Source: Candidatus Roizmanbacteria bacterium CG_4_10_14_0_2_um_filter_39_13
GTDB lineage: Bacteria > Patescibacteriota > Microgenomatia > UBA1406 > GWC2-37-13
Direction: 5' to 3'
DNA length: 58,443 nucleotides
Assembly (NCBI GenBank): GCA_002792315.1
Contig: PFOB01000019.1
Location: 1 to 58,443 of the forward strand
Program-made: the position numbers and the translations under genes
The notes under the pieces: model-generated
The model's input: the letters and a program-made list of their open reading frames with translations, nothing else
What the model was told of the DNA's origin: nothing
Database searches by the model: none
Shown here: positions 440 to 57,049 of the stretch, piece by piece
How the letters are laid out: each line of letters starts with the position of its first letter
Numbering within the stretch: the first letter of the stretch is position 1

Positions 440-1972
440 TTATGTTTTTGAAAATACCTTTTTTTGTACTGCCTCGATGAGATCTGGTGGGTAGTTTTTT
501 GCTTCAAATCGATCAGGTTCTTCAATTCCTCTGAAAATACTCCCAGTTGAAAGAAGTCTTGGTCTCGCAGACTCCCCTCCATAAAAAATTCCTGCAACGA
601 CTGCAGATGGATTGGGTATTTCTTGGAGAAGTGATGACAAACTGTCACTTTTTCTCGGAGTTGCCAAAGCTTGGGTTGCGATAATCAATGAATTAAATTT
701 GACAAATTTTTTGATTACTTGAACTACAGATCCAGCGGTTAATCCGGTGCAAACTGCATCATCTGCAAAAATAACATTGTCAATACTGCCAAGGTTTATA
801 AGTCGATTTTTATCATCGTCATTTAGTCTTGTATCACATGTAATTTTTCCATCAATCCAGTTTCTTCGAGCATATGGCGCTATAGAATTTTGAGGAAGAA
901 TCCCGCATTTTTCTAGTTCGGCACGCATATATTTTCCTCCACCACCTGGAAATATCCACAAATTATTCTCTCCGGTATATGATGCCAAATTTCCATTTCG
1001 AACAACCCACTCCATAATTAACTTATCGTCAAAGACGATAAGTTCTGGAATTGAAGTAACTTGGTCAGTAGATACTCCATATGCACGTTCATTTATATAT
1101 ATCATGGGTTCAACTTTCCCATCACCAAATGAGACACTATCCGCCACAACTATTCCCAGACCGTATGAAAAATTATTACCGGTCAACGATTCCACTCTTT
1201 GTTGAGCATTCAATAAACCTCGAGGAATTCTATTGTCGGTACCCAGATAACCCTTGTACAGTAACTCTTTGATGATCATTCCAACCGGAATTAATTCTTC
1301 AGATTGTAAATAATTTTTTTTAGTCGATAAATCAGATGTATTCGTCTCCTCAATTATCTGAGGAATTTCGGGAGTTAACGGAGTAAAAATAACTTTTCGT
1401 TTTTTCATTGCTTCCTTTACTATTTTTTCTCCAAGTTTGTCGGTTCGAATTCCTGATTTTACTACCGGACCCCCTCCAGGAGCTCTCGCTTGAAATCTAC
1501 TATCTCGTGTAATACTTTTTGGAGATACTCCATATGTGGATGCATCACTTTGATTCATTTCTTTTGCCGGTGGCTTATCTTCCGGCCAATCAGCAATTTT
1601 GGCACACACCTTTTCACCACGTATTCGAAATTGGAGTTGATTTTCAGAGAGCATCCGAATAACTTTTTCAGGTGAAAGATTGGTCTGTCGGGATAATTCT
1701 TGGACGGTAATACATGGAAGATCAACGGTGGGATTTTGATTCGTGATCCAAGGCTGAATTCGTGTTTCAATTGCCTCTCGAATTGTCGGAACGATATCAT
1801 CACGTGTTTCATTTCGCAAGGCGTCGCTCACTTGAGCGTTATTCCACCCAGTCAAATCATATAAATCTCCTTCTCCTGAAAATTGTGCATAATCAGGAGG
1901 GAGGCCCAAATCTCTAACCGAAGATCGAAATTTTTCATAGCCCGAATTTGTTAATTGCTCTCGTGGATTCAT
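440..1972 (-). CDS. HTH (excisionase/MerR-like) plus type I phosphoribosyltransferase-domain protein, function unknown
   Basis: aa 88-128 ITVQELSRQTNLSPEKVIRMLSENQLQFRIRGEKVCAKIADW looks like an HTH_17-type helix-turn-helix. The C-terminal part carries the PRPP-binding loop VIFADDAVCTGLTAGS (aa 399-414) and a Gly-rich loop IFPGGGGKYMR. ATGA overlap with the upstream gene. Confidence 0.6.
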   Translation of the reverse strand: MNPREQLTNSGYEKFRSSVRDLGLPPDYAQFSGEGDLYDLTGWNNAQVSDALRNETRDDIVPTIREAIETRIQPWITNQNPTVDLPCITVQELSRQTNLSPEKVIRMLSENQLQFRIRGEKVCAKIADWPEDKPPAKEMNQSDASTYGVSPKSITRDSRFQARAPGGGPVVKSGIRTDKLGEKIVKEAMKKRKVIFTPLTPEIPQIIEETNTSDLSTKKNYLQSEELIPVGMIIKELLYKGYLGTDNRIPRGLLNAQQRVESLTGNNFSYGLGIVVADSVSFGDGKVEPMIYINERAYGVSTDQVTSIPELIVFDDKLIMEWVVRNGNLASYTGENNLWIFPGGGGKYMRAELEKCGILPQNSIAPYARRNWIDGKITCDTRLNDDDKNRLINLGSIDNVIFADDAVCTGLTAGSVVQVIKKFVKFNSLIIATQALATPRKSDSLSSLLQEIPNPSAVVAGIFYGGESARPRLLSTGSIFRGIEEPDRFEAKNYPPDLIEAVQKKVFSKT

Positions 1973-2880
1973 ATTTGTGTTAATGTTTGTAAAAAAGGCA
2001 TCAATGCCGATCCGGCATAACCAGGAAGTATTAGGCCGGCACGCAACTTAATTTTTTCTGAAGCATTTTCTGGAACTACCACAAGACCTCCGTTTTTGGA
2101 TATATACTGTGCGACAGGTAAGTCCATCTGTTCGTCATCACCAATAAATAATGATGTTTCTGTTGCTATTCCACACTGAGTTTGAAGTGATTGGACTCCA
2201 TGTAATTTTGTAATAATTTCATTATTTGGACTGTTTGGTCGTATCAAAACAGATCCATCTGTTCGAGTGATAGAAATATTGTTAAATAGTTTTGGATTTT
2301 CGTTTCGTAACGACTCGACAAAGTCTGCACATGCAAAGTAGTTATAATCAGTTGGACACTCACGAGCATTCCCAGAAGGCCACAAAATAACAGAGAGTTG
2401 ATTGGGGTAGTTTGAAAAAACGAACGGCATTGGTTTAAGATCTTTTTGATTTGTTGGAAAGCTTCCGAAAGCGTTTGGGTCTTTTGAATAGTCTCCAAAT
2501 GAATACTTGTCGTCCGTGTTACGGGGACCAATAGGGATAAAAGCCATTCTCAATCTTTTTCGTATCTCATCAAGGTTTTGAAGATCATTCGCGCCACAGG
2601 TGGTCTGAATTTCACCATTTACTTTTATCATCAGTCCTGCTTCGAAAATGCCGTTTGAACTTGCAAGAAGAACATCTTTGCCTGGATAGCTCTCAGCTTC
2701 CATTTCGCCGAGACTTCGTGAAGTGCATGGAATGAGCTTATACCTTTGAGCAAGTTCAGTAAAAACACCATTAAGTTCATCTGGTCCTGGATATATACAC
2801 TGATCCACGTCAATAAACAAAGTATTGACTTGTCTCAATCTTTCTTGAAGTTCACTTGAGAAGTATTGTTCGGATCTCAT
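1969..2880 (-). CDS. HAD-superfamily phosphatase (IIB/Cof-like layout)
   Basis: Motif I FIDVDQC (DxD), motif II PCTSRS, motif IV FIGDDEQMD, with a large cap region between motifs II and III. ATGA overlaps at both ends. Confidence 0.55.
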   Translation of the reverse strand: MRSEQYFSSELQERLRQVNTLFIDVDQCIYPGPDELNGVFTELAQRYKLIPCTSRSLGEMEAESYPGKDVLLASSNGIFEAGLMIKVNGEIQTTCGANDLQNLDEIRKRLRMAFIPIGPRNTDDKYSFGDYSKDPNAFGSFPTNQKDLKPMPFVFSNYPNQLSVILWPSGNARECPTDYNYFACADFVESLRNENPKLFNNISITRTDGSVLIRPNSPNNEIITKLHGVQSLQTQCGIATETSLFIGDDEQMDLPVAQYISKNGGLVVVPENASEKIKLRAGLILPGYAGSALMPFLQTLTQI

Positions 2881-3785
2881 AATGTCATTAAATCAATGAG
2901 TAATGAAAAAAATCTTTCGGAATTTACGTTGGTTACAACTTTTACATTCCCATTTGAACAAGCATTCAAGTATGTAGTTCCTATATCGTCACCTTTCAAA
3001 GAAACGTTTATCTGTCCTTGTTTTGAATCAGTTTGGATAGTTGAGTTGAATAATAAACTTGCAGCGAGAGGGTCATAGAAATAGTCAAAATCCGTAGTAT
3101 TTCCGAGTGTGATTGCCTTGATGATTTTGCCAAATATTGTATTTGGTTGTATTTCACTAATCAGCGACACAAATTCCTTACTATTTGGTACACAAGAAGT
3201 AGCATCAATTCCCACCATGATGATGGGAATTCCTGAGTTAAATACTATCTGTGCTGCTTGTGGATCGAGCCAAATATTATATTCAGCTTTCCTTGAAGGC
3301 GGTACATTTCCCTTTTTTAAACCCCCGCCCATGAGGATGATTTGATTTACATTATTTTTGAATTTTGCTCCCTGATTTTGAATAATTGATGCCAAATTTG
3401 TCAGAGGACCCAAAGCAAGAATGGTAATATTTTTCGAGATGAAACTAGCTATTGATTTGACTCCGATTTGTTTATCGTTTTTTAGTTTATTTTTAGGAAT
3501 GCCAAGGTTAGATAGAAGGGTCAAATTCTCAGCCCGTTTGCGATCTTGAATGGGAAAGGTAGTATTATTGGGTACTAACGCAGTAGTATAACCCGATAAA
3601 ATTGGAATGTTCACGCCGCAATAGGTCAAAAGAACGTTTATATTTTCATATCCTCGATTCACACTACTTACTCCATTTACGAGAGATATTCCTTTGATGC
3701 TCGTTTTATTAGATAGAAAAAGCATGGAAATTGCCATGATGTCATCATTTCCCATGTCCGTATCAATCCATAGATTTGTTTTCAT
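2877..3785 (-). CDS. inosine-uridine-preferring nucleoside hydrolase family (IUNH)
   Basis: N-terminal WIDTDMGNDD (DxDxxxDD), GPLTNLA, and MGGG..GN..AEYNIWLDPQAAQIVF blocks typical of IUNH enzymes. Confidence 0.8.
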   Translation of the reverse strand: MKTNLWIDTDMGNDDIMAISMLFLSNKTSIKGISLVNGVSSVNRGYENINVLLTYCGVNIPILSGYTTALVPNNTTFPIQDRKRAENLTLLSNLGIPKNKLKNDKQIGVKSIASFISKNITILALGPLTNLASIIQNQGAKFKNNVNQIILMGGGLKKGNVPPSRKAEYNIWLDPQAAQIVFNSGIPIIMVGIDATSCVPNSKEFVSLISEIQPNTIFGKIIKAITLGNTTDFDYFYDPLAASLLFNSTIQTDSKQGQINVSLKGDDIGTTYLNACSNGNVKVVTNVNSERFFSLLIDLMTL

Positions 3786-3819
3786 TTTTCAATAAATAAT
3801 TAATAAATTTTTGCCCATT

Positions 3820-3843
3820 AAAAAACCCCGCGGTTTGCGGGGT
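3820..3843 (-). terminator. intrinsic terminator inside the 5' leader of the nucleoside-hydrolase operon (attenuator segments 3:4)
   Basis: Minus strand: CCCCGC (3842-3837), loop AAACC, GCGGGG (3831-3826), then UUUUUU (3825-3820). It lies 34 nt upstream of the ATG at 3785, not after any gene. Confidence 0.55.
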
Positions 3844-3868: not shown

Positions 3869-3931
3869 CTACCCCGCAGGTGCGAGGTGATGATGATTTA
3901 TTTCGTTTTGCATTTCATTAATAGCTAACAT
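3869..3931 (-). CDS. putative 20-aa leader peptide MLAINEMQNEINHHHLAPAG
   Basis: ATG at 3931-3929 lies 7 nt after a -10 hexamer. Three consecutive His codons CAT CAT CAC occupy 3895-3887. The last codons and the UAG stop (3871-3869) are embedded in hairpin segments 1 and 2. Confidence 0.45.
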   Translation of the reverse strand: MLAINEMQNEINHHHLAPAG

Positions 3932-3946
3932 ATTTAATATATTAGC
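3924..3946. promoter_or_regulatory. imperfect 23-bp palindrome (candidate operator) overlapping the -10, predicted +1 and leader ATG
   Basis: GCTAACATATTTAATATATTAGC matches its reverse complement at 20 of 23 positions. TAACATATT is repeated directly at 3926-3934 and 3951-3959. Confidence 0.35.
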
Positions 3947-3967
3947 ATGTTAACATATTAAAGTCAA
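3939..3967 (-). promoter_or_regulatory. sigma70-type promoter TTGACT-N17-TAATAT for the leader/nucleoside-hydrolase operon
   Basis: Minus strand: TTGACT at 3967-3962, a 17-nt spacer, TAATAT at 3944-3939. Confidence 0.5.
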
Positions 3968-3997
3968 GGGCATTGTTTCAAACCAATAGTAATCCAA

Positions 3998-4006
3998 TGT
4001 TATAAT
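3998..4006 (+). promoter_or_regulatory. extended -10 promoter (TGtTATAAT) for the YerC-like gene
   Basis: TG at 3998-3999 and TATAAT at 4001-4006. The GTG start at 4013 is only 6 nt downstream and has no Shine-Dalgarno sequence. Confidence 0.4.
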
Positions 4007-4012
4007 AAACAT

Positions 4013-4309
4013 GTGACGACATCATATAATCCATATAAAGCAAAAAATAGTGAAGAGAAAGCTTTGGCAGAGGCTTTTGCAAAAGTTCAAACAACTCAAG
4101 AAAGTCTGAATTTGTTACGAGATCTTTTGACCCCAAAGGAGCTTGAAGAATTTGGGAGACGCTTTAAAATAGCAAAACTTCTTGAGACGACCGACATGTC
4201 TTATGAAGCAATTGCAAAGAAAATGAAAACGTCCACAACTACCGTAACTCGTGTTGCCCTTTGGCTCAATAATGGGAGTGGGGGATATAAAAAGGCTTTA
4301 GGTAAATAA
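4013..4309 (+). CDS. TrpR-like DNA-binding protein, YerC/YecD family
   Basis: 98 aa. LTPKELEEFGRRFKIAKLL ... TSTTTVTRVALWLNNGSGGYKKAL matches the YerC/YecD (Trp-repressor-like) HTH and C-terminal GSGGY block. GTG start. Confidence 0.7.
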   Translation: MTTSYNPYKAKNSEEKALAEAFAKVQTTQESLNLLRDLLTPKELEEFGRRFKIAKLLETTDMSYEAIAKKMKTSTTTVTRVALWLNNGSGGYKKALGK

Positions 4310-4344: not shown

Positions 4345-5064
4345 ATGAAGTTTGAAAAAGTATATCGATATATTAACCCGAATACATACATAAACATTTT
4401 TTCTAAACCTCATTGGTATTTGGAGATACAACCAGAGTTAAAAGAATTTTTTTATGATTATGACGGCATCAGAGATAATAAATCAACAAAATGGCTCGAT
4501 ACAAGAAGCGAATATGTAACAATGATTTGTGAATTTTTGAAAGCAAATCAAATTCTACTTGCAAGCTTTGGAGATGATTTAGATAATGATCGTTTACCCA
4601 TCGACGCAATAGTTATTCATCACTCAAGCACTCCACCTGACAGTTCAATTGACGTAATCAATACTCTCGGTTTGATTCGTTTGTATGCGCCTTATTACAG
4701 TCAAAGGAAAAATAAAGAGTTTGGTCAACCCATATGGTCAAATCATACGTATAAAAATAGGCAAACATTCGTCGCCTATCATTACATAGTGAGACAAGAC
4801 GGCACTTTTGAGCATATTTTACAAGATGCACAAATTGGTTGGCATTGTGGTGATTGGAACCATAATTGTAGGAGTATTGCGATTTGTTTTCTTGATGATT
4901 TGAAAAAAGTTCCTCCAACAAGGCAAGCTTTACAGACGGCAAAAAAAATCATTCGCACGTATCCCCATTGCAAGTTACTTGGTCACAGAGAAGTGAAGTT
5001 GTCAACTCTCTGTCCGGGAAGTTTATTTCTTGGAAATGAGGGGTGGAAAAACATTTTACTCTGA
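4345..5064 (+). CDS. N-acetylmuramoyl-L-alanine amidase (Amidase_2/PGRP/AmpD-like fold)
   Basis: IVIHHSSTP, YHYIVRQDG, IGWHCGDWN and GHREV...LCPG are the Zn-ligand and core blocks of Amidase_2. No signal peptide or TM visible. Confidence 0.7.
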   Translation: MKFEKVYRYINPNTYINIFSKPHWYLEIQPELKEFFYDYDGIRDNKSTKWLDTRSEYVTMICEFLKANQILLASFGDDLDNDRLPIDAIVIHHSSTPPDSSIDVINTLGLIRLYAPYYSQRKNKEFGQPIWSNHTYKNRQTFVAYHYIVRQDGTFEHILQDAQIGWHCGDWNHNCRSIAICFLDDLKKVPPTRQALQTAKKIIRTYPHCKLLGHREVKLSTLCPGSLFLGNEGWKNILL

Positions 5065-17320: not shown

Positions 17321-18577
17321 CTATTGAATAATAAATATGGGAAACGATTCGACGGTGTCAATTGCCTCTGAGAGACGTTGTTCGCTTGATGAATGGAATG
17401 TCATTAATGGACGTTTAGCTGACATATAATCTTTTCGCTTCACTAATAATTCAATGCCTGCTTTTTGATCCTTTGGCGCCCCAAGAATTTTTGCTATGGC
17501 GTTCAAATGGTAGTTGTTTATACTCATTATTGTACCAGATTTGTCCGAATAGACTTTTTTTTGGTGCTCTGCAGTTTCAATTGATTTCCATGTGACATTT
17601 GGATCTCCGTATTGAGCTTTGATAATTTTTCTAAATGCCTCAAGTGCTTTGCCGTTTTCAAGAAGCGATAAAGCTTCTTTATTACCATCCTTCTTAATTC
17701 TTTGTGTTTTATAACAAAGATCAAGGAGGAGACCAGCAAGTCTGAGTGAGCGTTTTTCAAGCTCAAGTGGTCGAGACTTATCTTGCTCAAGAACTTTCAT
17801 TACGTCAATTGCCTCAAGAGTTGGTCCAATCCCATATCCTGCTGGTTCATGGGTATGATTAATATCGACAACGACTTTGATGCCAAATTTCTCAGATATT
17901 TGCTCAAATTTACGCTTGACAATGAGCGCATCTTTTTCTGATTTTATTTTCATGGTCTTTCCGATCGGAAGATCAATTACAAGATGGTTTGTCGAGGCGG
18001 CTACTTTTTTTGCCATGATCGACACTATAAATTTGTCATATGATTCAAAAGATAGCGGCTCTTCAATCCGAATGATCACGTCATCTGCAGGAGCTATTCC
18101 CAAATGTCCTCCCCAGATAATACATCCACCAACCTCATGAACGATTTTGGTTACCTGTTCAGGAGAGAAGTTTACTTTTGCAAGAACTTCCATCACATCA
18201 GCGGTTCCTGCGGGAGAAGTAATTGCGCGTGAAGATGTTTTTGGAATGGTAAATCCAGCTGCAACAATAATGGGAACGATGATCATCGTAGCGCGTGTTC
18301 CGGCGATTCCACCAATAGAATGTTTGTCTGCCACAATACCAGGAAAATTGAGCTTTTCCCCCGTCTCAACCATTGCCTTGGTAAGATGAAAGAGTTCGTC
18401 TGGAGTAAATCCTTCGCTAAAACCAGCCGCCGCAAAATATGTGGTCAAAATATCTCCGAGCCTTTCAGTTGCGATCTGATCCATGACCGCATAAATCTCA
18501 CGATACGTAAGCGCCCCTCCTTTTAGTTTTTTTTGAATCGCTTCAAGCGCGATTAAATGTTCTTTTTTTTGATTCAT
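17321..18577 (-). CDS. thymidine-phosphorylase-family enzyme, archaeal AMP-phosphorylase-like subtype
   Basis: DKHSIGGIAG and KTSSRAITSPAGTADVMEVL blocks. The second resembles the archaeal AMP phosphorylase type more than the E. coli DeoA SGRGLGHTGGT block. Subtype judged from memory only. Confidence 0.7.
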   Translation of the reverse strand: MNQKKEHLIALEAIQKKLKGGALTYREIYAVMDQIATERLGDILTTYFAAAGFSEGFTPDELFHLTKAMVETGEKLNFPGIVADKHSIGGIAGTRATMIIVPIIVAAGFTIPKTSSRAITSPAGTADVMEVLAKVNFSPEQVTKIVHEVGGCIIWGGHLGIAPADDVIIRIEEPLSFESYDKFIVSIMAKKVAASTNHLVIDLPIGKTMKIKSEKDALIVKRKFEQISEKFGIKVVVDINHTHEPAGYGIGPTLEAIDVMKVLEQDKSRPLELEKRSLRLAGLLLDLCYKTQRIKKDGNKEALSLLENGKALEAFRKIIKAQYGDPNVTWKSIETAEHQKKVYSDKSGTIMSINNYHLNAIAKILGAPKDQKAGIELLVKRKDYMSAKRPLMTFHSSSEQRLSEAIDTVESFPIFIIQ

Positions 18578-36831: not shown

Positions 36832-37512
36832 ATGAAAATAAATTTAATTATAGATTTTGACTCAACATTCATCACTGGTGAATCTTTGGAATGGCTAGCT
36901 GAGGAGGCTTTGAAAAGTAAACCACACAATGAACAAAAAAAAATACTTTCTCAAATCGAAGAAATAACCCGAAATGGAATGGAGGGGAAACTATCATTTG
37001 AAGAATCGCTTCGACAACGGCTTGCATTATTTAAGCCAAGCAAATCACATATTGATCAACTTGTTAAAAGAATTGAAAACTCTCTTACGCCTTCTTTTGA
37101 GAAGAACCGAGAATTCATTCAGCAAAATGCGCCGAATATTTATATAGTTTCTGGCGGATTTCATGAGTATATGGATCAAGTTCTTGAAACATTTAGCATA
37201 CTAAAGCAAAATATCTCAGCAAATTCGTTTATATTTGATGGAGATCTTGTGGATGGATTTGACTCTACAAATGTATTGAGTAAGTCTCAGGGAAAGATTG
37301 AGGCAGTGCGTGCAATGAATCTTGATGGTAAAGTCATAGTCATTGGAGATGGATATACCGATTATGAAATTGTTGCAAAAGGCGCAGGAGATTTCTTTAT
37401 AGCATTTACTGAAAACATATATCGTGGTTTTGTAAATGAAGTACATCACATTGAAGCTCAATCGTTTGACGAAGTCATGGCTTTTTATCGTCGTTATGTA
37501 AAGAAAGAGTAG
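36832..37512 (+). CDS. serB: phosphoserine phosphatase (HAD family)
   Basis: IIDFDSTFITGESLEWLAE (DxDxT), VSGGF and IGDGYTDYE. Sits directly upstream of serA and serC. Confidence 0.75.
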   Translation: MKINLIIDFDSTFITGESLEWLAEEALKSKPHNEQKKILSQIEEITRNGMEGKLSFEESLRQRLALFKPSKSHIDQLVKRIENSLTPSFEKNREFIQQNAPNIYIVSGGFHEYMDQVLETFSILKQNISANSFIFDGDLVDGFDSTNVLSKSQGKIEAVRAMNLDGKVIVIGDGYTDYEIVAKGAGDFFIAFTENIYRGFVNEVHHIEAQSFDEVMAFYRRYVKKE

Positions 37513-37525
37513 TATAATTTTTTCT

Positions 37526-38755
37526 ATGAAACGTTCGTTATCCTATCCAAAAAATAAAATCAAAGTTCTCCTGCTTGAAAATATTGACTCACTTGCTCAA
37601 GATATATTGTCTGAGGAGGGATATTCGGTAAAAACAGTTTCGTCTGCGTTATCAGAGAAAGAACTTATAGATGAAATCAAAAATATCTCTATAATTGGCA
37701 TTCGCTCAAAAACTCAGTTATCATCCGAAATAATCAATTCATCAACGAAACTTCTTGCAATTGGTGCATTTTGTATTGGGACAAATCAGATTGATTCGAA
37801 AGCTTCAGCGCTCAAAGGAATTCCCATTTTCAATGCTCCCTACAGTAATACGCGAAGTGTGGTCGAATTAATTCTTGGCGAGATGCTTGTGCTATCGCGG
37901 AAAATTATTGATCGAAGTAATAACCTTCATGCGGGTATTTGGAATAAAAGTTCTGTAGGTTGTCATGAACTTCGTGGAAAAAAATTGGGAATTATTGGCT
38001 ATGGAAATATTGGATCGCAACTATCGGTACTTGCTGAGAACTTGGGTATGGAAGTTATGTATTATGATACTTCTGATAAACTTTCTCTTGGAAATGCAAA
38101 AAGCTGCACCACCATGAAAGAGGTTCTCAAAAATGCTGATATCGTGACGATCCATGTCGATGGTCGTTCGGCGAACAAAAATTTAATAGGAAAGAAGGAA
38201 TTTGCACTGATGAAACAGGGAGCTCTGTTTTTAAATGCAAGCCGTGGATTTGTTATTGATGTTGACGCACTCACTGAAGCTGTTACTCAAAAGAGGCTTG
38301 CGGGATGCGCGGTAGATGTATTTCCAACGGAACCAAACGGAAGTGGTGCTGGTTTTCAATCACCCCTTCAGGGTTTACCTAATACGATTCTCACTCCTCA
38401 TATAGGGGCGGGAACTGTTGAAGCTCAGCAAAATATTGCCAGATATGTGTCTTCAAAATTAATTCAATTCATAAATACAGGAAGCACTACTTTGTCGGTA
38501 AATTTTCCTGAAATTCAGCTGTCTGAGGTTCGAAAGGTTCATCGATTGATTCATATGCATCGAAATGTTCCGGGAGTTCTTGCAAAAATCAATAATCTTC
38601 TCGCTCAAAATAAAATCAACATAGAAGGTCAATATTTGAAAACAAATGATGAGGTTGGGTATGTGATTACTGATGTTAATCGAATATATGCCAAAGAAGT
38701 AGTGCGGCAATTACGAGAGATGAAGGAAACAATTCGAGTTAGAGTTCTTTATTAA
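37526..38755 (+). CDS. serA: D-3-phosphoglycerate dehydrogenase with C-terminal ACT domain
   Basis: Colinear by eye with E. coli-type SerA: IGIRSKTQL, CIGTNQID, NAPYSNTRSV, GIIGYGNIGSQL. 409 aa. Confidence 0.9.
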   Translation: MKRSLSYPKNKIKVLLLENIDSLAQDILSEEGYSVKTVSSALSEKELIDEIKNISIIGIRSKTQLSSEIINSSTKLLAIGAFCIGTNQIDSKASALKGIPIFNAPYSNTRSVVELILGEMLVLSRKIIDRSNNLHAGIWNKSSVGCHELRGKKLGIIGYGNIGSQLSVLAENLGMEVMYYDTSDKLSLGNAKSCTTMKEVLKNADIVTIHVDGRSANKNLIGKKEFALMKQGALFLNASRGFVIDVDALTEAVTQKRLAGCAVDVFPTEPNGSGAGFQSPLQGLPNTILTPHIGAGTVEAQQNIARYVSSKLIQFINTGSTTLSVNFPEIQLSEVRKVHRLIHMHRNVPGVLAKINNLLAQNKINIEGQYLKTNDEVGYVITDVNRIYAKEVVRQLREMKETIRVRVLY

Positions 38756-38758
38756 CTA

Positions 38759-39829
38759 ATGAAATATTTTACGGTTGGTCCTTCGGAGCTATATCCCATT
38801 GTACCAAGCAAAATAAAACAAGCACTGAAAGACGGAGTGCTCTCGATTTCCCATAGAGCTCGTATTTTTGATGAGTTATTTGAAAGTACCACAAACAATC
38901 TGAGGACACTACTGTCGATTCCAAAAAAACATTCAATATTTTTTCTTTCATCGGGTACCGAGGGAATGGAGCGCATCATCCAAAACATGGCTAAACAAAA
39001 AACGCTTCATTTGGTAAATGGTGCATTTGCAAAAAAATTTTATCAGATTGCATTACAACTTAAAAAAGATCCACTTAAAATTGAAGTCGAATATGGGAAG
39101 AGTTTTGATTGGAAAGAACTTTCAATTCCCCGCTCCACCGAGCTTGTCTGTGTGACCCAAAATGAAACGAGTACCGGAGTTGCCATAGATCTGAAACAAA
39201 TATATACGCTGAAGCGGAAAAATCCAAAGGTCTTGTTTGCAGTTGACGTTGTCTCATCAATCCCCTATGTTACTGTCGATTATTCAAAAATTGATGCAGT
39301 ATTTTTTTCGGTTCAAAAAGGATTTGGACTTCCTGCGGGCTTAGGAGTATTGATCGTAAGTCCCGCAGCTATTAGTAAATCACTTTCTCTTGAAAAGCAA
39401 TACCTTTCAACTGGTTCATATCATTCATTTTCATCTCTCAAAAAAAATGCTGACAAATATGAGACACCAGAGACACCCAATATTCTTGATATATATTTAT
39501 TGAATGAAGTAGTTAAAGATATGTTGAATAAGGGAATTGATTTAATGAGAAAAGAAACAGAAGAGAAAGCAAAATATATTGAAACATTCGTTGAAAAGAG
39601 CAGAGAATTGAGTTATCTTGCAGAAAATTCTGAAATTTATTCAAAAACAGTTCATGTATTAAAGGTGAATGGCGGCGCAAAGCAACTGATGGAGCATTTA
39701 AAAAAACATGGTTTTTTGATAAGCTCCGGGTACGGAGCGATGAAAAATGACTATGTCAGAATTGCCAATTTTCCCGCGCATACGATCGATAATTTGGAAA
39801 AACTTGTTGATTGCCTCTCATCAATTTAA
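38759..39829 (+). CDS. serC: phosphoserine aminotransferase (class V aminotransferase)
   Basis: NETSTGV and the FSVQKGFGLPAGLGVLIV PLP-lysine block. Context after serA. Confidence 0.8.
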   Translation: MKYFTVGPSELYPIVPSKIKQALKDGVLSISHRARIFDELFESTTNNLRTLLSIPKKHSIFFLSSGTEGMERIIQNMAKQKTLHLVNGAFAKKFYQIALQLKKDPLKIEVEYGKSFDWKELSIPRSTELVCVTQNETSTGVAIDLKQIYTLKRKNPKVLFAVDVVSSIPYVTVDYSKIDAVFFSVQKGFGLPAGLGVLIVSPAAISKSLSLEKQYLSTGSYHSFSSLKKNADKYETPETPNILDIYLLNEVVKDMLNKGIDLMRKETEEKAKYIETFVEKSRELSYLAENSEIYSKTVHVLKVNGGAKQLMEHLKKHGFLISSGYGAMKNDYVRIANFPAHTIDNLEKLVDCLSSI

Positions 39830-46291: not shown

Positions 46292-48427
46292 ATGGGCTTT
46301 TCGATACCATTCTTCAAAAAAAAATCAGAAAAATCTATCTACTTTGGTCTCTACATAACCGATGCATCGGCATTTGGTTTTGTTTTCGAGGTTACCAAGG
46401 GTCAAACCTACATCATTTCACAAAATACCTACAATCTTACTGCTGGCTTTGACAAAATCTTAGAAGATATAGATAATCTCATATCTGAGCTCGAATTAAA
46501 AACAAATCATCATCTCAGTCAGACAATTTTTTTTCTACACTCATGGATGATCGATGCGGAGACTTTTGAAATAAAAGCCCCTTACAAAGGTATCATTAAA
46601 AAACTATCCAAAGATCTTGAACTTGAGCCTTTGGGGTATATTGATGTGAAAGAAGCACTGGAACGATATTTTATTGAAAAATCGATCGTAAATACCGTTG
46701 CTATTGAAGTAAATAAAACAAAGCTCGGGGTAAGTGTTATAAAAGGAAATAAAATTGTTCATTCTCAATACATCGCGCGAACTGATGAAGTGGGGGATGA
46801 TCTCAATAGTGTATTTAAAGAGTTGCCCAAACATGTAGTTTTGCCAAATTCGATGAAAATATTTGGTGATGAAGATAAAGCTGAGATATCTTCGAAACTT
46901 GCAACGTACGAGTGGGATGAGGCTATATTTCCTCAGCATCCAACAATTGAAATTATCAAACAAGATGAGCTGAACCAAACGCTCGTAGAAACATTTACGA
47001 AAGAAATGATAATGAATACTGATTCAAAAGATTCGACTGGAGCTTCAGTTACGCAAGTAGCTTCGCCGAGCTCTGGAGCAAATGACGGTGTTCATTTTGG
47101 TTTTCTTGAAGGCAAGGATGTTTTGGCCGATACAAAACCTCCCATAATACTTTCAGCTCAAGACGCAAGTTCCTCTCAACAAACAATCATTAATTCTCAA
47201 AATGATGCATTTGATATCCAACCAGAAAAAAACGATACGGGAAAAATAAAAGACCCCTTTTCTTCAGAAGACACGGGAGAATCTCAAGGTGTAAACAAAA
47301 AGAAAATTGCGATTATCACCGCGATAACTGTTGTCGTAATCGTGGGCATTTTAGCATTTTACGAATATTTTCTTCACACGCTTCATATTAAAATATATCT
47401 CAAATCAAAAACGGTCGATCAAACATTTGACATTGATATTCCAATAAAAGATACAGAATCAAATGAACTTGTGGTGATTAAAAAGGATATTACTAATGAA
47501 TATTCAAATAAGAAGAATACATCAGGCGTGAGAGACGTAGGTGAAAATGCAACGGGAACTGTCCTCATGATTAACAAAGATAGCACAGAGAGGATATTTC
47601 AAAAAGAAACCGAGTTAAAAAAGGGTAATCTGATTTTTCTAACAGATTCTGAAGTAAAAGTGCCCGCTTCAAAATTGAATGAGGATAATGATGTAGAAAC
47701 AGGTAAAGCAAAAATATCAGTTACGGCAAAGGAAATTGGGGAGGAATACAATATAACTAAAGATACCCAACTTCAAGTAGAGTCTCTTTCAACATCCCTC
47801 TATCTTGCAATTGCTGATGATGCATTCACCGGAGGTTCAAAAAAGGAAGTTTCTACTGTCTCGAAAAAGGATATTGATGCTCTTGAAGCAGAAGCAGAGA
47901 AACAGGCCAAGCAGAATTCAGAAAATGTCTTGGGTACACAGATTAGTAATGATGAAATCATTATTTCTGATCTTACCTCCGCAAAAGTTATAGATACAAC
48001 ATTCTCAGGAGAGATCGGAGAAGAAGCAACGTCACTTTCAATCAAAGCAGAATCGGAGGTGGAATATTTTACCATTAAAAAAAATGTACTCTTAGCCAGT
48101 CTTAAAGAGCTTTTTGGTACTGAATTAGATTCTGGATATACTGTTGATTCTGATAATATTGATTACACTATCGAAGATGTAACGCAAGGAAAAGATGAGG
48201 TGCAATTATCAATTGATGCTTCTGCTACAACACATAAAGAAGTTCAGCTTGAAGAAATTAAATCCTTGTCACGAATGCATTTGGTCGGATCACTTGAAGA
48301 TGCATTAAAAAAAGATTTTGAGATTGAGAAGATTGAGACTGACCAACGATTTGGATGGATTCCTGTTCTTTCTTCTTGGGTTCCATTTTTTAGTAAAAAT
48401 ATCAGCATTAGCACTTCGGTGCGCTAA
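46292..48427 (+). CDS. 711-aa bitopic membrane protein of unknown function (structured cytoplasmic domain, disordered linker, TM, about 350-aa extracytoplasmic domain)
   Basis: Long intact ORF. Single TM IAIITAITVVVIVGILAFYEYFL at aa 339-361. No family motif I can name with confidence. Ends 3 nt before the sortase gene. Confidence 0.6.
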   Translation: MGFSIPFFKKKSEKSIYFGLYITDASAFGFVFEVTKGQTYIISQNTYNLTAGFDKILEDIDNLISELELKTNHHLSQTIFFLHSWMIDAETFEIKAPYKGIIKKLSKDLELEPLGYIDVKEALERYFIEKSIVNTVAIEVNKTKLGVSVIKGNKIVHSQYIARTDEVGDDLNSVFKELPKHVVLPNSMKIFGDEDKAEISSKLATYEWDEAIFPQHPTIEIIKQDELNQTLVETFTKEMIMNTDSKDSTGASVTQVASPSSGANDGVHFGFLEGKDVLADTKPPIILSAQDASSSQQTIINSQNDAFDIQPEKNDTGKIKDPFSSEDTGESQGVNKKKIAIITAITVVVIVGILAFYEYFLHTLHIKIYLKSKTVDQTFDIDIPIKDTESNELVVIKKDITNEYSNKKNTSGVRDVGENATGTVLMINKDSTERIFQKETELKKGNLIFLTDSEVKVPASKLNEDNDVETGKAKISVTAKEIGEEYNITKDTQLQVESLSTSLYLAIADDAFTGGSKKEVSTVSKKDIDALEAEAEKQAKQNSENVLGTQISNDEIIISDLTSAKVIDTTFSGEIGEEATSLSIKAESEVEYFTIKKNVLLASLKELFGTELDSGYTVDSDNIDYTIEDVTQGKDEVQLSIDASATTHKEVQLEEIKSLSRMHLVGSLEDALKKDFEIEKIETDQRFGWIPVLSSWVPFFSKNISISTSVR

Positions 48428-49226: not shown

Positions 49227-51530
49227 ATGCTGAAACAGACATCCGTTACCTATCGTATGGTTGAAATTTGGATTGCACGTGCAATCTATTTTTTTCTCTA
49301 TTTTATTGCATTGTTCATCGTTTCTCTTGGAGAAGTAACATTTAAAAGCGTATATTATCCTCTTCTTTACATAAATAAAACCGTTTTTCAAATATACTCA
49401 TTTTTTACTGGAGTAGTTTTTATTGGCTTTGTTAAATCAGGAATCAATAATATTTCTACTATTATTGTGAGTACGCCAAAGTTTATTTCACTTCTTCTAA
49501 AATCATCAATTAAGTTGGTTGAATCTTTTGTGTTTTGGGTTTTGTTTCTGGGTATATCATTACTGCGTTTTTTTAGAAGTCTCTATTTTCGCTATTTTAT
49601 ATATGGCTTTGTTTTTTGTCTGCTTATGATATTTGTATATCAATCGTTTCTTTTTGTGAATGATCTCCCCTCACCAAAATCAATTGGAGAAGTAAACTTT
49701 GCCCAATCTACTCACCTCTATGATCGAAATGGACGACTGTTATATGAAATATTTAGAGATTATAATCGAACAAAAGTAGAGCTTTCTGATCTACCAAAAA
49801 CCATTGTTCAAGCAACTATTTCAATTGAAGATAAGCATTTTTACAATCACAAGGGAATCTCATTTTTTGGTGGAGTACTTCGCGCCGTTAAAGAAACACT
49901 TGCAACAAATGAACTTCAAGGAGGATCAACAATTACGCAACAATTGGTAAAAAGTGCTCTTCTTACTCCTGAACGCACGATGGAGCGAAAACTAAAGGAA
50001 ATGGTGCTTGCTTTATGGACCGAGCAAATATATTCAAAAGATCAGATTATGGAAATGTATCTCAATCAAGTTGCGTATGGTGGATCTGCATATGGTGTTG
50101 AGGAAGGAGCAAAAGTTTATTTTGGAAAAAATGCACGAGATTTGACTTTGAGCGAATCAGCGCTTCTTGCTGGACTGACTCGAGCACCCTCAATCTATTC
50201 ACCATTCATCAATCCAGATCTTGCAGAAAAAAGAAGAAATCAAGTATTGAATGAAATGTATTTAATCGGATACATTTCTCAGAAGGAGAAAGAAGCTGCT
50301 CAAAATGAACCATTAAATGTACAATCTCCAACTACCAATATTCGAGCTCCACATTTTGTTATGCACACGCGAACCTATCTTGAACAAGAATATGGAAGCA
50401 AACAAATTGAAGAGGCCGGTTTTCGGATTACTACTACCCTTGATCTTGAGATACAGGACAAAGCGCAACAAATTCTTCAAGAAGAAATAAGTCGCCTGAA
50501 GGCACGAAATATTTCAAATGGAGGTGTCATTGTATTAAATCCTGAAACGGGAGAAATACTTGCTATGGTAGGATCAGTGGACTATTTCAAAGATAAATAT
50601 GGAGCGTTTAATGTCACCACCGCCCTCAGGCAACCGGGGTCAGCCCTCAAGCCGGTACTGTACTCAATGGCATTATCTCGTGGATTTACAGCCGCAACAC
50701 CAATTGATGATTCGCCGATCATCTTTCATATTCCCGGGAGTGAGTCATATAAGCCCGTCAATTACGACAGGCGGTATCACGGGAGAGTTTCTATTCGACA
50801 AGCGCTTGCAAACTCTTACAATATCCCTGCTGTCAAGGTTCTCAATTCTCTTGGGGTACAATCATTTGTCGATTTTGCACAAGAAATGGGGATAAACACA
50901 TGGGAAGATTCGTCTCGATTTGGACTCTCTTTAAGTCTTGGTGGAGGTGAAGTGACACTCCTTGATCTTTCACAAGTATTTGGTGTGTTTGCAAACGGTG
51001 GATATCGGGTTAAGCCAAGTCCTGTTGGTTCAATTGTTGATAGTAATGAGCGGAAAATTCAAGAGTTATACAGTTCAAAAACAAAAGTACTGGATGAAGG
51101 AGTCTCATTTATCATTTCCGATATTCTTGCAGATAATAATGCGCGAATGCCCGCTTTTGGTCGGGCAAATTTACTTAACATTCCCGGACATACGGTATCG
51201 GTGAAAACAGGAACCACAAACGATTTTAAAGACGCATGGACCGTGGGATACACTTCAAAGGTAGTAGTTGGTGTTTGGGTTGGGAACAACGATAATAGTC
51301 CCATGGACAGTGCTCCCGGATCTTTGGCAGCAGCACCAATCTTTAAACGGCTGATGACCTACCTTCTTGAAGAAAAAGATATGGAAGGTGAGATTCAAAA
51401 GCCGCCAAATGTGGTCGGAAAACCATGCTATGTGGGAAAAACAGAATATTTTCTCACGGGGACTGAATCTAAAAGCGGATGTTTTGACACGATCATAAAA
51501 CCAGGAACTCCAACACCAATGAGCAATTGA
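49227..51530 (+). CDS. class A penicillin-binding protein, copy 2, with long hydrophobic N-terminal extension
   Basis: EDKHFYNHKGI, GGSTITQQLVK, RKLKE, SALKP (SxxK) and KTGTTND. About 150 aa with several hydrophobic helices precede the GT51 domain. Confidence 0.9.
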   Translation: MLKQTSVTYRMVEIWIARAIYFFLYFIALFIVSLGEVTFKSVYYPLLYINKTVFQIYSFFTGVVFIGFVKSGINNISTIIVSTPKFISLLLKSSIKLVESFVFWVLFLGISLLRFFRSLYFRYFIYGFVFCLLMIFVYQSFLFVNDLPSPKSIGEVNFAQSTHLYDRNGRLLYEIFRDYNRTKVELSDLPKTIVQATISIEDKHFYNHKGISFFGGVLRAVKETLATNELQGGSTITQQLVKSALLTPERTMERKLKEMVLALWTEQIYSKDQIMEMYLNQVAYGGSAYGVEEGAKVYFGKNARDLTLSESALLAGLTRAPSIYSPFINPDLAEKRRNQVLNEMYLIGYISQKEKEAAQNEPLNVQSPTTNIRAPHFVMHTRTYLEQEYGSKQIEEAGFRITTTLDLEIQDKAQQILQEEISRLKARNISNGGVIVLNPETGEILAMVGSVDYFKDKYGAFNVTTALRQPGSALKPVLYSMALSRGFTAATPIDDSPIIFHIPGSESYKPVNYDRRYHGRVSIRQALANSYNIPAVKVLNSLGVQSFVDFAQEMGINTWEDSSRFGLSLSLGGGEVTLLDLSQVFGVFANGGYRVKPSPVGSIVDSNERKIQELYSSKTKVLDEGVSFIISDILADNNARMPAFGRANLLNIPGHTVSVKTGTTNDFKDAWTVGYTSKVVVGVWVGNNDNSPMDSAPGSLAAAPIFKRLMTYLLEEKDMEGEIQKPPNVVGKPCYVGKTEYFLTGTESKSGCFDTIIKPGTPTPMSN

Positions 51531-52891
51531 TTCATTATAATGATCATATGAGCTCCTCTTTTACCTTCGACCAAATCGTATTGAATCCAAAAACAGGTGA
51601 GATTCACTTCTTATATATTTTGACAAAAGATACGGTGACGCATCGATTTGATGAAAAAATGAGTTTTCCCCTATCTGAAAAGTTGAATGAAACAGATCCG
51701 CTCGTGCAAAAAATATTGCAGTCAGTACATGTCGCACTGGGAATGAGCTATTGGAAGCTGTACTGTCCAACAGAGATTTCCTTTTCATCATATCAATTAT
51801 CAAAAACAGAGGCAGATTTTTGGAATACTATTTATACCAAAGGAATGGGGGAGTTTTATTTTAAAAATTCTCTTGATTATCGCAATTTAATGCACTTTCC
51901 CTTTGATGAGTCGATTCAAAATGGTCAGACTGATTGTAAATTGAAGGACAGAAGTTTGGTTGGAATGGGAGGAGGAAAGGATTCAATTGTTTCCGCCCGA
52001 TTACTTCAAAATGCATCAAAGAGCTTTGATGGTTTTATCGTCGAAACTCAAAAAAAGTATTCAGTGGTGAGTGGAGTTTCTGAGGAGCTAAACGTAAAAA
52101 CAATTACGGTTGACCGTTTTATTGACCCGCAGTTGTTTGAGGTAAATAATAGAGCTGATGTTTATAATGGTCATGTTCCCATTTCAGTAATATATGCATT
52201 TCTTGGCGTGCTTTGTGCGTACCTATATGATTATCGAAATGTGATCGTATCAAATGAGCGAAGCTCGGATTATGGAAATATTGAATATTTGGGTGAAATG
52301 ATCAATCATCAGTGGAGTAAATCATCGGAGTTTGAACAGCTTTTTCAGAAATTCATTTCTCAAACTCTTACCCCTGAAATCCATTATTTTTCATTACTGC
52401 GCCCCCTTTCAGAGCTTCAAATTGCCCAAATATTTTCTAAGGAAAAGAGGTTTCACCAGATCTTTTCAAGCTGTAACAGAAATTTTGCCATTCATAATCC
52501 GGGTTCACATCTTTGGTGTGGCACGTGCCCAAAGTGTGCATTTACCTTTATCCTTATGGCTGCATATTCTTCAAAGGGAGAAGTGTTAAATATATTTGGA
52601 GACAATTTTCTTGATAAAAAAGAATTATTCCCCTTATATAAACAGTTATTTGGCACCGAGGGACATAAGCCGTTTGAATGCGTGGGTACGCCGGCTGAAG
52701 CCGTCGTTGCAATGACCCTCATTCATGAAAAGCAGGAGTTTGAGGATTCACTTGTTATGAAGGAGTTTGTTCAAAACATACTACCCGATAATGATTCAGT
52801 TAATAAACTGAAGTATGATGTGTTGGTTTTCAAATCGCGCCATATGATTCCTGATGAATTTCAATCCATTATTCCAAACAGCTTATTATGA
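51527..52891 (+). CDS. PP-loop ATP-pyrophosphatase-fold protein; candidate MurL-type UDP-MurNAc-L-Ala-L-Glu epimerase
   Basis: GGGKDS PP-loop at aa 148-153 (nt 51968-51985) and a Cys cluster WCGTCPKCAF. TTGA overlap with the PBP gene and ATGA overlap with murD. The start could be ATG 51548. Confidence 0.45.
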   Translation: MIHYNDHMSSSFTFDQIVLNPKTGEIHFLYILTKDTVTHRFDEKMSFPLSEKLNETDPLVQKILQSVHVALGMSYWKLYCPTEISFSSYQLSKTEADFWNTIYTKGMGEFYFKNSLDYRNLMHFPFDESIQNGQTDCKLKDRSLVGMGGGKDSIVSARLLQNASKSFDGFIVETQKKYSVVSGVSEELNVKTITVDRFIDPQLFEVNNRADVYNGHVPISVIYAFLGVLCAYLYDYRNVIVSNERSSDYGNIEYLGEMINHQWSKSSEFEQLFQKFISQTLTPEIHYFSLLRPLSELQIAQIFSKEKRFHQIFSSCNRNFAIHNPGSHLWCGTCPKCAFTFILMAAYSSKGEVLNIFGDNFLDKKELFPLYKQLFGTEGHKPFECVGTPAEAVVAMTLIHEKQEFEDSLVMKEFVQNILPDNDSVNKLKYDVLVFKSRHMIPDEFQSIIPNSLL

Positions 52892-56358: not shown

Positions 56359-57049
56359 AAAAATATACTTTTTCCTCTTCATTATTTCTCTGGGAGTTTG
56401 GATTGTTCTTTTTCACTCCATAGACAATGAGTATAGAGTTAGGACTATAACCGTAATCGGAAAATCGGATGCGGAAAGCGTTATCGGTACAACAGCACTC
56501 CTTAACAAAAATATATGGTTTATTGATGAAATTAAAGCGAGAGAAGTGATCAATAAAATAAATCCTTTCTATGAAATAACGAAGATCCAAAAGGAGTATC
56601 CAAGCACGCTTTCAATATCTGTTCGTCGTCTCTATCCATCAGCTTATCTTGATGTTGGAAATGGATTCCTATTATTGAGCAAAGAAGGTAACATTCTTCA
56701 AAAGGATCGCATTCTTTCGCGTGATTCTATTCCAATTATTACCTATTATCAAGACATTCCTTATTCAGGATATCACGCAGGAGATATCATTGATAAAAAA
56801 GACATTCGTGACGTACTGTATTATATTGAGGTGGTAGAACGTGCAAAGGAGAAGGTTATTCGTATTGATATTGCTGGATATCATATGCTAGGATTATATA
56901 CAGATGACCATGAATATTTATTTTCATCAGAAAAAGAACGTGAGCTTCAGTTGTATCAATTTGAAGAAGCTATAAAGCAATTTCAGATACAAGGAATTAC
57001 GTATTCAAGAATTGATTTTAGATTTGACAAACCAGTGGTTAAATTTTGA
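56279..57049 (+). CDS. ftsQ: FtsQ/DivIB-like division protein (TM + POTRA)
   Basis: One TM, then a VRTITVIGKS POTRA-like start. Canonical position between murG and ftsA. Start uncertain (56279 or 56321); both overlap the murG end. Confidence 0.6.
   Translation: MKKRIKKFLEFINPMQFPALSLKFFLKKIYFFLFIISLGVWIVLFHSIDNEYRVRTITVIGKSDAESVIGTTALLNKNIWFIDEIKAREVINKINPFYEITKIQKEYPSTLSISVRRLYPSAYLDVGNGFLLLSKEGNILQKDRILSRDSIPIITYYQDIPYSGYHAGDIIDKKDIRDVLYYIEVVERAKEKVIRIDIAGYHMLGLYTDDHEYLFSSEKERELQLYQFEEAIKQFQIQGITYSRIDFRFDKPVVKF

Follow-up and report, generated by a model that had tools for sequence, protein, structure and literature searches.

A candidate histidine-controlled operon of N-ribosyl enzymes in a Roizmanbacteria-like bacterium of the candidate phyla radiation

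Introduction

Why would a nucleoside hydrolase, a phosphatase and a phosphoribosyltransferase (PRTase) be encoded in a single operon, and which signal would switch them on? This question is raised by three genes on the reverse strand of a 58,443-nt stretch of DNA (in the following, the window) from Candidatus Roizmanbacteria bacterium CG_4_10_14_0_2_um_filter_39_13 (contig PFOB01000019.1, positions 1 to 58,443). Gene 1 encodes an N-ribohydrolase of the inosine-uridine nucleoside hydrolase (IUNH) family, gene 2 a phosphatase-like protein of the haloacid dehalogenase (HAD) superfamily and gene 3 a fusion of a helix-turn-helix (HTH) domain to a PRTase domain. A first-pass annotation of the sequence had not matched this set to a salvage route. 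Here, the locus is read as a histidine-controlled operon of N-ribosyl enzymes in a Roizmanbacteria-like bacterium of the candidate phyla radiation (CPR). As a whole this reading is tentative, its chance being put somewhat short of even. The assignments of the enzymes to their families are held with high confidence, and a histidine-responsive regulation of the operon is considered likely. The features on which the reading is built are listed in Table 1.

Table 1. Features of the operon and its control region in the window (P1, first leader hairpin; PRPP, phosphoribosyl pyrophosphate; a dot marks features without strand)
Feature	Position	Strand	Evidence or remark
Gene 3, HTH + basic linker + type-I PRTase fusion, 510 aa	440-1972	-	Model and alignment
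Gene 3, C-terminal type-I PRTase-fold domain, aa ~230-510	443-1285	-	pLDDT ~90, Foldseek
Gene 3, excisionase/MerR-like winged HTH, aa ~60-130	1583-1795	-	TIGR01764, E=0.025 (aa 88-123)
Gene 2, HAD-IIB (Cof-type) phosphatase-like protein, 303 aa	1969-2880	-	Motifs and fold match
Gene 1, IUNH-family N-ribohydrolase, 302 aa	2877-3785	-	PF01156 match
Intrinsic terminator ACCCCGC-AAACC-GCGGGGT, segments 3 and 4	3819-3843	-	Stem 3843-3825, then T run; 4 loci
Leader peptide ORF MLAINEMQNEINHHHLAPAG, or shorter MQNEINHHHLAPAG from 3913, each followed by a stop	3869-3931	-	His codons 3887-3895
Hairpin P1 ACCUCGC-ACCU-GCGGGGU, segments 1 and 2	3871-3888	-	Read and folded
Near-perfect second palindrome GCTAATATATT-A-AATATGTTAGC, 23 bp	3924-3946	.	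Covers -10 and start region
Sigma-70-type operon promoter TTGACT-17-TAATAT, TG extension	3939-3967	-	-35 conserved in 5 loci
Palindrome ATGTTAACAT, candidate operator of HisR-like repressor	3947-3956	.	Inside promoter
Divergent YerC/YecD-type TrpR-family regulator, HisR-like, 98 aa	4013-4309	+	PF01371, E=1e-18

Operon organization and conservation in related loci

The three open reading frames (ORFs) had been described as a single unit chained by ATGA overlaps. Direct reading of the sequence verified their coordinates and both 4-nt overlaps, acattATGAgatcc at 2880-2877 for the junction of genes 1 and 2 and caaatATGAatcc at 1972-1969 for that of genes 2 and 3. The triad recurs in related loci and is kept in all relatives found. 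The order divergent TrpR-like gene, IUNH, HAD, PRTase is common to all loci with enough flanking sequence (L001/L002, L005 and L006). All relatives carrying the triad are Roizmanbacteria-like CPR contigs, and the triad is confined to a few of these genomes.

In a further locus (L007), the fragment of an IUNH gene is followed by a 611-aa protein (P0009, encoded at 368-2203), in which HAD and PRTase are fused into one polypeptide. This fusion is strong evidence that the gene 2-type HAD and the gene 3-type PRTase act together.

A more distant relative (L008:3-1324) has a different arrangement. Here, the HisR-like gene is directly divergent from a PRTase-only gene (encoding P0011), with no IUNH or HAD gene between them and without an attenuator; the contig ends directly past the PRTase gene.

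Characterization of the divergent regulator gene, promoter and candidate operator

The gene transcribed divergently from the operon adjoins the cluster in all loci. All five cluster neighbors match the YerC/YecD model TIGR02531 at 44.9-72.4 bits (cutoff 42.2), and against the TrpR equivalog model the neighbors score 25-35 bits (cutoff 67). The closest relatives in the PDB are 3frw and 3g1c, the latter being a structure of HisR (PMC9413887). YerC was identified as the histidine repressor HisR, for which L-His is needed as corepressor to bind 20-bp palindromes (Ashniev et al., PMC9413887). These palindromes are located upstream of his biosynthesis and transport genes (PMC9413887).

A candidate operator could be found at the corresponding place, inside the sigma-70-type promoter of the operon. 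The palindrome ATGTTAACAT occurs only once in the 58 kb of the window, with a core that is conserved in five loci. Its sequence differs from the published Firmicute HisR consensus cacTTTAnnnnnnTAAAgtg.

On the opposite strand, a promoter-like site (TTCAAA-18-TATAAT, 3977-4013) stops 7 nt short of the GTG start codon of the HisR-like gene, so that the regulator may have a leaderless mRNA. The leader ORF described below, in its long form, likewise begins 7 nt past the -10 of the operon promoter (ATG at 3931).

Identification of a His-codon leader peptide and a predicted transcription attenuator

A His-codon leader upstream of the operon had been noted before. It was confirmed here and found to be conserved, together with alternative hairpins, in four loci (window, L001, L005 and L006). 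In the window, the leader ORF has three consecutive His codons, which overlap the 5' arm of hairpin P1. All four leader ORFs start with ATG and end in HH(H)xxxxAG (HHHLAPAG, HHHLAPAG, HHPRPRAG and HHRLANAG), and the stop codon, TAG or TAA, directly follows GCGGGG at the same place in each of them. GCGGGGU, the 3' arm of P1, can instead pair with ACCCCGC (3843-3837), the 5' arm of the terminator, to form the antiterminator. The predicted stabilities in the four loci are -10.5 to -11.4 kcal/mol for P1, -14 to -18.5 kcal/mol for the antiterminator and -13 to -14 kcal/mol for the terminator. The motif has no second copy in the window or in the other loci retrieved. Rfam gave no match to the leader at gathering thresholds; its His_leader family (RF00514) had none at E<=10, and permissive matches were at chance level. 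The leader would work like the classical attenuator class but is outside the Rfam His_leader family.

By analogy with that class, P1 and the terminator would form when His-tRNA is plentiful, and transcription would stop. When His-tRNA is scarce, a ribosome stalled on the His codons would mask segment 1, segments 2 and 3 would pair as the antiterminator, and RNA polymerase would read into the three coupled genes. The histidine-loaded HisR-like repressor would in addition block initiation, resulting in a double control in the style of the trp operon but tuned to histidine.

The arrangement resembles the E. coli trp operon (TrpR together with the two-codon trpL attenuator) and the his regulons of Firmicutes in several respects. 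A TrpR-family repressor gene lies beside a promoter palindrome, the hairpins form a 1:2, 2:3, 3:4 set with two to three tandem regulatory codons on segment 1 and the stop codon in segment 2, and the leader is terminated by an intrinsic terminator. In some Firmicutes, leader peptides with 3-5 consecutive His codons were described immediately upstream of attenuator hairpins (PMC9413887). In contrast to the trp and his regulons, the controlled genes encode an IUNH, a HAD-IIB protein and a PRTase, not proteins of his or trp biosynthesis or transport. Further differences from the Firmicute HisR regulons are the operator core, which is off the consensus, and the host, since CPR bacteria are outside the HisR study (PMC9413887). 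The link to histidine that had been proposed from the leader is strengthened by the YerC/YecD (HisR-family) neighbor and by the conserved leader with its alternative hairpins.

The leader could also be seen as a sensor of queuosine (Q). The CAU-rich His codons would then sense Q34 of tRNA-His, and the IUNH would be a QueK-like queuosine hydrolase, with the HAD as the phosphatase of queuosine-5'-phosphate. In favor of this, Q is present in tRNA-His, the leader His codons are mostly CAU, and QueK of C. difficile is described in the literature as an IUNH-family enzyme. However, CAU is simply expected at 37% GC, no tgt, queT or queL was found in the window and the adjacent 10 kb, and the PRTase would have no obvious role. 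Since the regulator belongs to the HisR family, which points at histidine itself, queuosine salvage was downgraded and is now regarded as extremely improbable.

Gene 1 encodes an N-ribohydrolase lacking the canonical catalytic histidine

The assignment of gene 1 to the IUNH family was borne out by a full-length match to PF01156 (IU_nuc_hydro; E=2.5e-51, 175.5 bits with a cutoff of 34.2) and by the Ca/ribose-binding motif DTDMGNDD, which is of the N-terminal DXDXXXDD type. Both features are shared with the group-I nucleoside hydrolases (RihA/B/C, CfIU-NH), as are the AEYNI..DP ribose-binding block and the Asp of the H/Y-D-P motif. The closest PDB matches are the nucleoside hydrolases 6ba0 and 5tsq, in which HDP is aligned opposite YDP of gene 1.

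The His of this HDP motif is the catalytic residue of group I and corresponds to His241 in the numbering of the C. fasciculata IU-NH. It is not present in gene 1, which in this respect falls outside group I. Unlike in these enzymes, the position of the leaving-group-activating His is occupied by a Tyr (Tyr237) in every cluster ortholog, YDP being invariant across all five. Against the NCBIfam models for RihA/B/C, gene 1 reached 81-132 bits, far under the equivalog cutoffs of 382-459. The replacement of the activating residue, read from the alignment, hints that the gene 1 enzyme may act on an atypical leaving group.

Gene 2 encodes a protein of a rare HAD-IIB subfamily

Searches of Pfam and NCBIfam with gene 2 gave matches of E~0.1 to HAD-IIB models, all of them below the cutoffs. 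The first-pass annotation as a HAD phosphatase was nevertheless upheld by the invariant motifs and by Foldseek on the AlphaFold model, which found the fold that Pfam had missed. The motif residues D24, D26, T53, K225, D248 and D249 are invariant in six orthologs. In the model (pTM 0.74), the top Foldseek matches are all Cof-type HAD-IIB proteins, with 2pq0 and 1nf2 at E~1e-12. Motifs I to IV were found with a C2B cap between motifs II and III, as in class HAD-IIB, the cap being partly poorly modeled. The protein has the Asp+2 residue that is typical of phosphatases and mutases.

A direct search of the PDB sequences with gene 2 returned nothing useful, in contrast to profile and fold searches. 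The best match of the family profile among the PDB sequences was PfHAD1 (E=0.002). Three homologs were found in a database of 5.8 billion sequences, and the profile search added none beyond those of the first search. Gene 2 thus represents a new and very rare HAD-IIB subfamily.

Gene 3 carries a divergent type-I PRTase domain

Gene 3 had been described as an HTH, a linker and a region with the PRPP loop of type I PRTases. The structural model, Foldseek and the invariant loop agree with this description. The C-terminal domain gave 169 Foldseek matches at E<=0.001, and the best 50 fold matches in the PDB (E about 2e-5, probability 1.0) are all type-I PRTases (HGXPRT, APRT, XGPRT, UPRT and OPRT). 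The domain has the core fold of this class and a PRPP loop (VIFADDAVCTGLT) with two acidic residues followed by TG.T, of which D404, D405, G410 and T412 are invariant in the family alignment. The loop is also the sole region detected by sequence profiles against the PDB, as all of these matches run through it. A direct search of the PDB sequences with the protein gave nothing useful; here too, profiles and fold searches succeeded.

With the purine and pyrimidine PRTases of type I (HGXPRT 4zfn, APRT 4trb, XGPRT, UPRT), the domain shares the core fold, the acidic PRPP loop DD..TG.T, a Gly-rich loop resembling the pyrophosphate (PPi) loop (FPGGGGKYMR) and a beta-hairpin 'flexible loop'. It differs from them by an identity of only 10-20%, by the lack of a Pfam match at cutoff and by an additional N-terminal subdomain of about 100 aa. 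In addition, no counterpart of the highly conserved C-terminal block FYGGE..RPRLLSTGSI..RF.AKNYPPELIE could be identified. No Pfam family was assigned to gene 3; PF00156 is not reached by the window protein, whereas weak profile relatives reach or nearly reach it. These weak matches are proteins of the Pfam families Pribosyltran, PRTase_2 and PRTase-CE.

The family is small. Five proteins were found among 5.8 billion clusters. The profile had 23 matches at E<=0.001 among 1.84 billion representatives, about eight of which are true family members, the remainder being ordinary Pfam PRTases with E of 1e-8 to 1e-3. Only one of 185,579 species genomes, a metagenome-assembled genome of Candidatus Roizmanbacteria, contains the family. 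The species genomes and the JGI metagenomes yielded no additional loci, and the set of leaders remained at four. According to the profiles and the model, the C-terminal domain appears to be a new, deeply divergent and very rare family of type-I PRTases. As the three genes are co-conserved, the PRTase fold is predicted and no characterized protein was found to match gene 3 from end to end, the initial description of the set could be retained.

Outside the PRPP loop, the invariant polar residues include R370, C379, R440, Y464, R470 and R472. The PRPP loop, the PPi-type loop and the many invariant Arg, Tyr and Cys residues suggest an active site rather than a degenerate sensor, and the sequence makes it fairly likely that gene 3 is a catalytic PRTase.

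A PRTase and a HAD phosphatase, both repressed by histidine, are just what is found in a his operon, and genes 3 and 2 could be non-homologous replacements of his enzymes, namely a HisG substitute with type-I fold and a histidinol-phosphate phosphatase. The many invariant Arg and Lys residues of gene 3 could bind a triphosphate. An N-ribohydrolase, however, has no role in the histidine pathway, and there are no other his genes nearby. The fold search assigned gene 3 to the type-I PRTases and not to HisG, and no HisG model of Pfam or NCBIfam matched. Gene 2 is HAD-IIB and not of the HisB-N type; no HisB-N or histidinol-phosphatase model of NCBIfam or Pfam was matched at E<=1, the weak matches being to IIB/Cof models only. 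Such a replacement is very unlikely.

Three other PRTase-like proteins are of note. P0019 (515 aa, L009:6001-7548) matches the gene 3 profile weakly (E=2e-4) and combines a UPRTase-like domain with a domain of the Trp_repressor family. It was rejected as a Rosetta stone for the operon, because its TrpR domain is not related to the regulator of the window and nothing could be learned from its context. P0014 is an unusual, giant multi-PRTase protein of 4003 aa, in which six separate stretches match the PRTase profile (E=6.6e-9). In L010:117-1655, the gene of the 336-aa PRTase P0015 is immediately followed by a LOG/Lysine_decarbox-family gene, possibly encoding a nucleotide N-glycosidase, which would be another pairing of PRTase and N-glycosidase.

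Possible role of the HTH domain of gene 3

In the model, the N-terminal domain of gene 3 consists of two helices (residues 90-97 and 101-111) and two strands (114-117 and 120-126), which corresponds to a helix-turn-helix with a beta wing. It is joined to the PRTase domain by a basic linker of low confidence, disordered in the model. From this combination, gene 3 had been proposed to be a regulator of the PurR/PyrR type. It would then be a sensor of PRPP or nucleotides, not an enzyme, and would act on the operon jointly with the TrpR-like protein.

Like B. subtilis PurR/PyrR, the window protein and P0002 combine an HTH with a PRTase-like domain whose PRPP motif is intact, as it is in PurR. A role in regulation would also fit the second palindrome of the promoter region. 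The pattern GCTAA-N13-TTAG was found in the window and in L001 only, the two loci whose gene 3 bears an HTH, which is a correlation. A further point in favor is P0019 with its PRTase-like and TrpR-family domains, a weak profile match. However, the TrpR domain of P0019 has no similarity to the window regulator, and the HTH is restricted to the window gene 3 and P0002. Five of the eight aligned family members (P0003, P0004, P0005, P0010 and P0011; 257-320 aa) consist of the PRTase domain alone, and in P0009 the domain is joined to a HAD enzyme. Unlike PurR/PyrR, gene 3 has an HTH of the excisionase/MerR type, no match to the PurR-type N-domain was found, and the similarity to PyrR is marginal (E~0.4) and confined to the PRPP loop. 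The many invariant polar residues outside this loop and the position of gene 3 as the translationally coupled, final gene of an enzyme operon speak against a regulator as well.

The PurR/PyrR proposal was therefore not maintained as the core function of gene 3, as most family members lack the HTH; a gene 3 protein that is a regulator and not an enzyme is judged clearly unlikely. The HTH is best seen as a lineage-specific accessory, for which a PurR-like role is a plausible add-on in that lineage. The palindrome at 3924-3946 is possibly the site of this HTH, seen in two related loci, and would then serve an autoregulation that may be modulated by PRPP or the product.

Proposed function of the operon and alternative explanations

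The simplest chemistry, given that HAD and PRTase are fused in one relative, places the three enzymes on one N-ribosyl axis. The PRTase would interconvert a ribotide with the base and PRPP, the HAD would convert the ribotide to the riboside, and the IUNH would split the riboside into base and ribose. Both switches would turn the operon on at histidine shortage, and the task proposed for it is therefore a net flux by which a base linked to the supply of histidine is set free or recycled. As the compound, we would first consider a ribosylated or phosphoribosylated histidine or imidazole, second a handling of purines or 5-aminoimidazole-4-carboxamide (AICA) coupled to histidine synthesis and third an ordinary salvage under unusual control.

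The same three chemistries are known from yeast. Yeast nicotinamide-riboside metabolism uses a PRTase (Npt1), HAD nucleotidases (Isn1/Sdt1) and an IUNH (Urh1) in a nicotinamide/nicotinate riboside cycle, likewise acting on one base. In nucleoside antibiotic pathways such as that of toyocamycin, pairs like ToyH/ToyI consist of a PRTase and a HAD phosphatase, which in this order build a nucleoside from base and PRPP. In contrast to the operon described here, no histidine regulation is known for the yeast cycle or for ToyH/ToyI-type pairs, and the PRTase fold classes differ (those of the NAD pathway have the type II fold); the likeness is one of chemistry.

Several observations weigh against a histidine-controlled operon of N-ribosyl enzymes. 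The window regulator clears TIGR02531 narrowly (44.9 versus 42.2 bits), and the operator core is nearer to the E. coli TrpR consensus (central GTTAAC) than to that of the Firmicute HisR. L-His is a putative effector of the YerC/YecD proteins of CPR bacteria. The leaders number only four independent cases and have only two to three His codons each. Because the helix arms are invariant, the attenuator has no support from covariation; column-wise pair counts are uninformative for the same reason and because P1 of L005 is shifted in register. The leader ORFs are without obvious Shine-Dalgarno sites, and in three loci they would have to be translated from an mRNA with no or almost no leader. Neither in the 58-kb window, as stated before, nor in 10 kb beyond it were his genes found. 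Histidine synthesis is generally not expected of CPR bacteria. Any specific substrate assignment is doubtful at best. Finally, a single base together with a forward-running PRTase would make a futile cycle. That the set would be futile for a normal base had been an objection of the first-pass annotation, and this part of it stands. The objection was overstated in presuming the same base throughout and one direction, as the cycle is not futile if the PRTase runs in reverse using PPi, if the substrates are imported or if the enzymes use different bases.

A more specific form of the first candidate is a histidine-auxotrophic symbiont that frees histidine or imidazole from ribosylated forms under the switch of HisR and the His-codon attenuator. 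The substrates would be N-(5-phosphoribosyl)histidine, N-ribosylhistidine or breakdown products of His-ADP-ribose. The base would be freed by the HAD together with the Tyr-variant IUNH, and the reversible PRTase would convert ribotide and PPi to base and PRPP. The literature retrieved on N-ribosylhistidine consists of metabolomics studies, with none on enzymology, and searches for Roizmanbacteria with histidine and for nucleoside hydrolase and PRTase with Patescibacteria found nothing relevant. This form is considered improbable.

Ordinary salvage or catabolism would use the HAD as a 5'-nucleotidase, the IUNH to free base and ribose (as carbon source) and the PRTase to recapture the base as a nucleoside monophosphate, with regulators that look histidine-specific by coincidence or respond to another effector. 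IUNH and PRTase are the normal, standard nucleoside salvage pair of protozoa. CPR bacteria rely on salvage, gene 3 has its best fold matches among purine and uracil PRTases, and a DeoA-like AMP/thymidine phosphorylase is encoded in the window (17321-18577). On the other hand, two independent controls of the histidine type coincide at the promoter, PRTase and HAD belong to very rare, divergent families and not to the widespread Apt/Hpt/Upp types, and gene 1 is without the canonical catalytic His. We do not think that generic nucleoside salvage is the function of the operon, and rate this explanation as possible but unlikely.

The operon could also be an accessory to de novo histidine synthesis in a purine auxotroph in which PurH is missing. 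HAD and IUNH would dispose of the AICA ribotide (AICAR) by way of AICA riboside to AICA and ribose, and the PRTase would make up for the ATP that HisG uses by re-salvage of adenine or hypoxanthine. This would account for the histidine control and, with different bases, for a set that is not futile, and HisR regulons elsewhere do include his biosynthesis genes. It needs, however, a full his pathway, of which none was seen in about 68 kb and which is generally unexpected in CPR bacteria, and the HAD-PRTase fusion fits consecutive steps better than separate branches. AICAR disposal is accordingly rated as quite unlikely, and the release or recycling of a histidine-linked base by the three enzymes remains the preferred reading.

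Genomic context of the operon

The rest of the window is CPR core genome, with a cell-wall/division cluster, FtsK, MurJ, MetRS, serine-synthesis-like genes and the DeoA-like phosphorylase. A function in anti-phage defense was rejected, as the PADLOC models gave no match for the four proteins and the housekeeping neighborhood is conserved.

Next to the HisR-like gene, an Amidase_2 gene (N-acetylmuramoyl-L-alanine amidase; 4345-5064, forward strand) separates it from dtd in the window. In L001/L002 there is no Amidase_2 gene at this position, and dtd directly follows the regulator. On the other side, 3' of the operon, a HepT/MNT (nucleotidyltransferase) toxin-antitoxin pair is located in the P0002 lineage (L001:9607-10222), and at this place the window has a hydrophobic ORF of 100 aa (129-431).

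The DeoA-like protein (17321-18577, reverse strand) has the domains Glycos_trans_3N, Glycos_transf_3 and PYNP_C and is probably an AMP or pyrimidine-nucleoside phosphorylase of CPR nucleotide salvage. At 36832-39829 on the forward strand, genes for a HAD (SerB-like), a 2-hydroxyacid dehydrogenase with ACT domain (SerA-like) and a class-V aminotransferase (SerC-like) stand in a row. They form an apparent serine biosynthesis cluster, and the same family trio adjoins P0019 in L009. In the cell-wall/division region, three ORFs of 711, 454 and 256 aa (46292-48427, 51527-52891 and 56279-57049, respectively) have no Pfam match at E<=1e-5.

Significance

CPR bacteria, whose genomes are tiny, are believed to scavenge amino acids and nucleotides; very little is known about their regulation. 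The locus shows a repressor-plus-attenuator circuit of the textbook trp/his type in this group, predicted to act over N-ribosyl enzymes and not over biosynthesis or transport. The superfamilies and the regulatory devices are known, whereas the subfamilies, which two of the three enzymes newly define, and their combination are new. The operon proteins are small and look soluble, which makes them amenable to in vitro work.

The locus points to a link between histidine supply and ribosylated compounds. If this link is true, histidine supply would be tied to an unrecognized riboside or ribotide metabolite, the new PRTase family would have a function and the Tyr-variant nucleoside hydrolase a role, and the operon would be the first HisR regulon outside biosynthesis and transport. 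If the operon indeed serves a histidine auxotroph, it would be the first histidine regulon described in CPR bacteria and would provide the first enzymology of N-ribosylhistidine.

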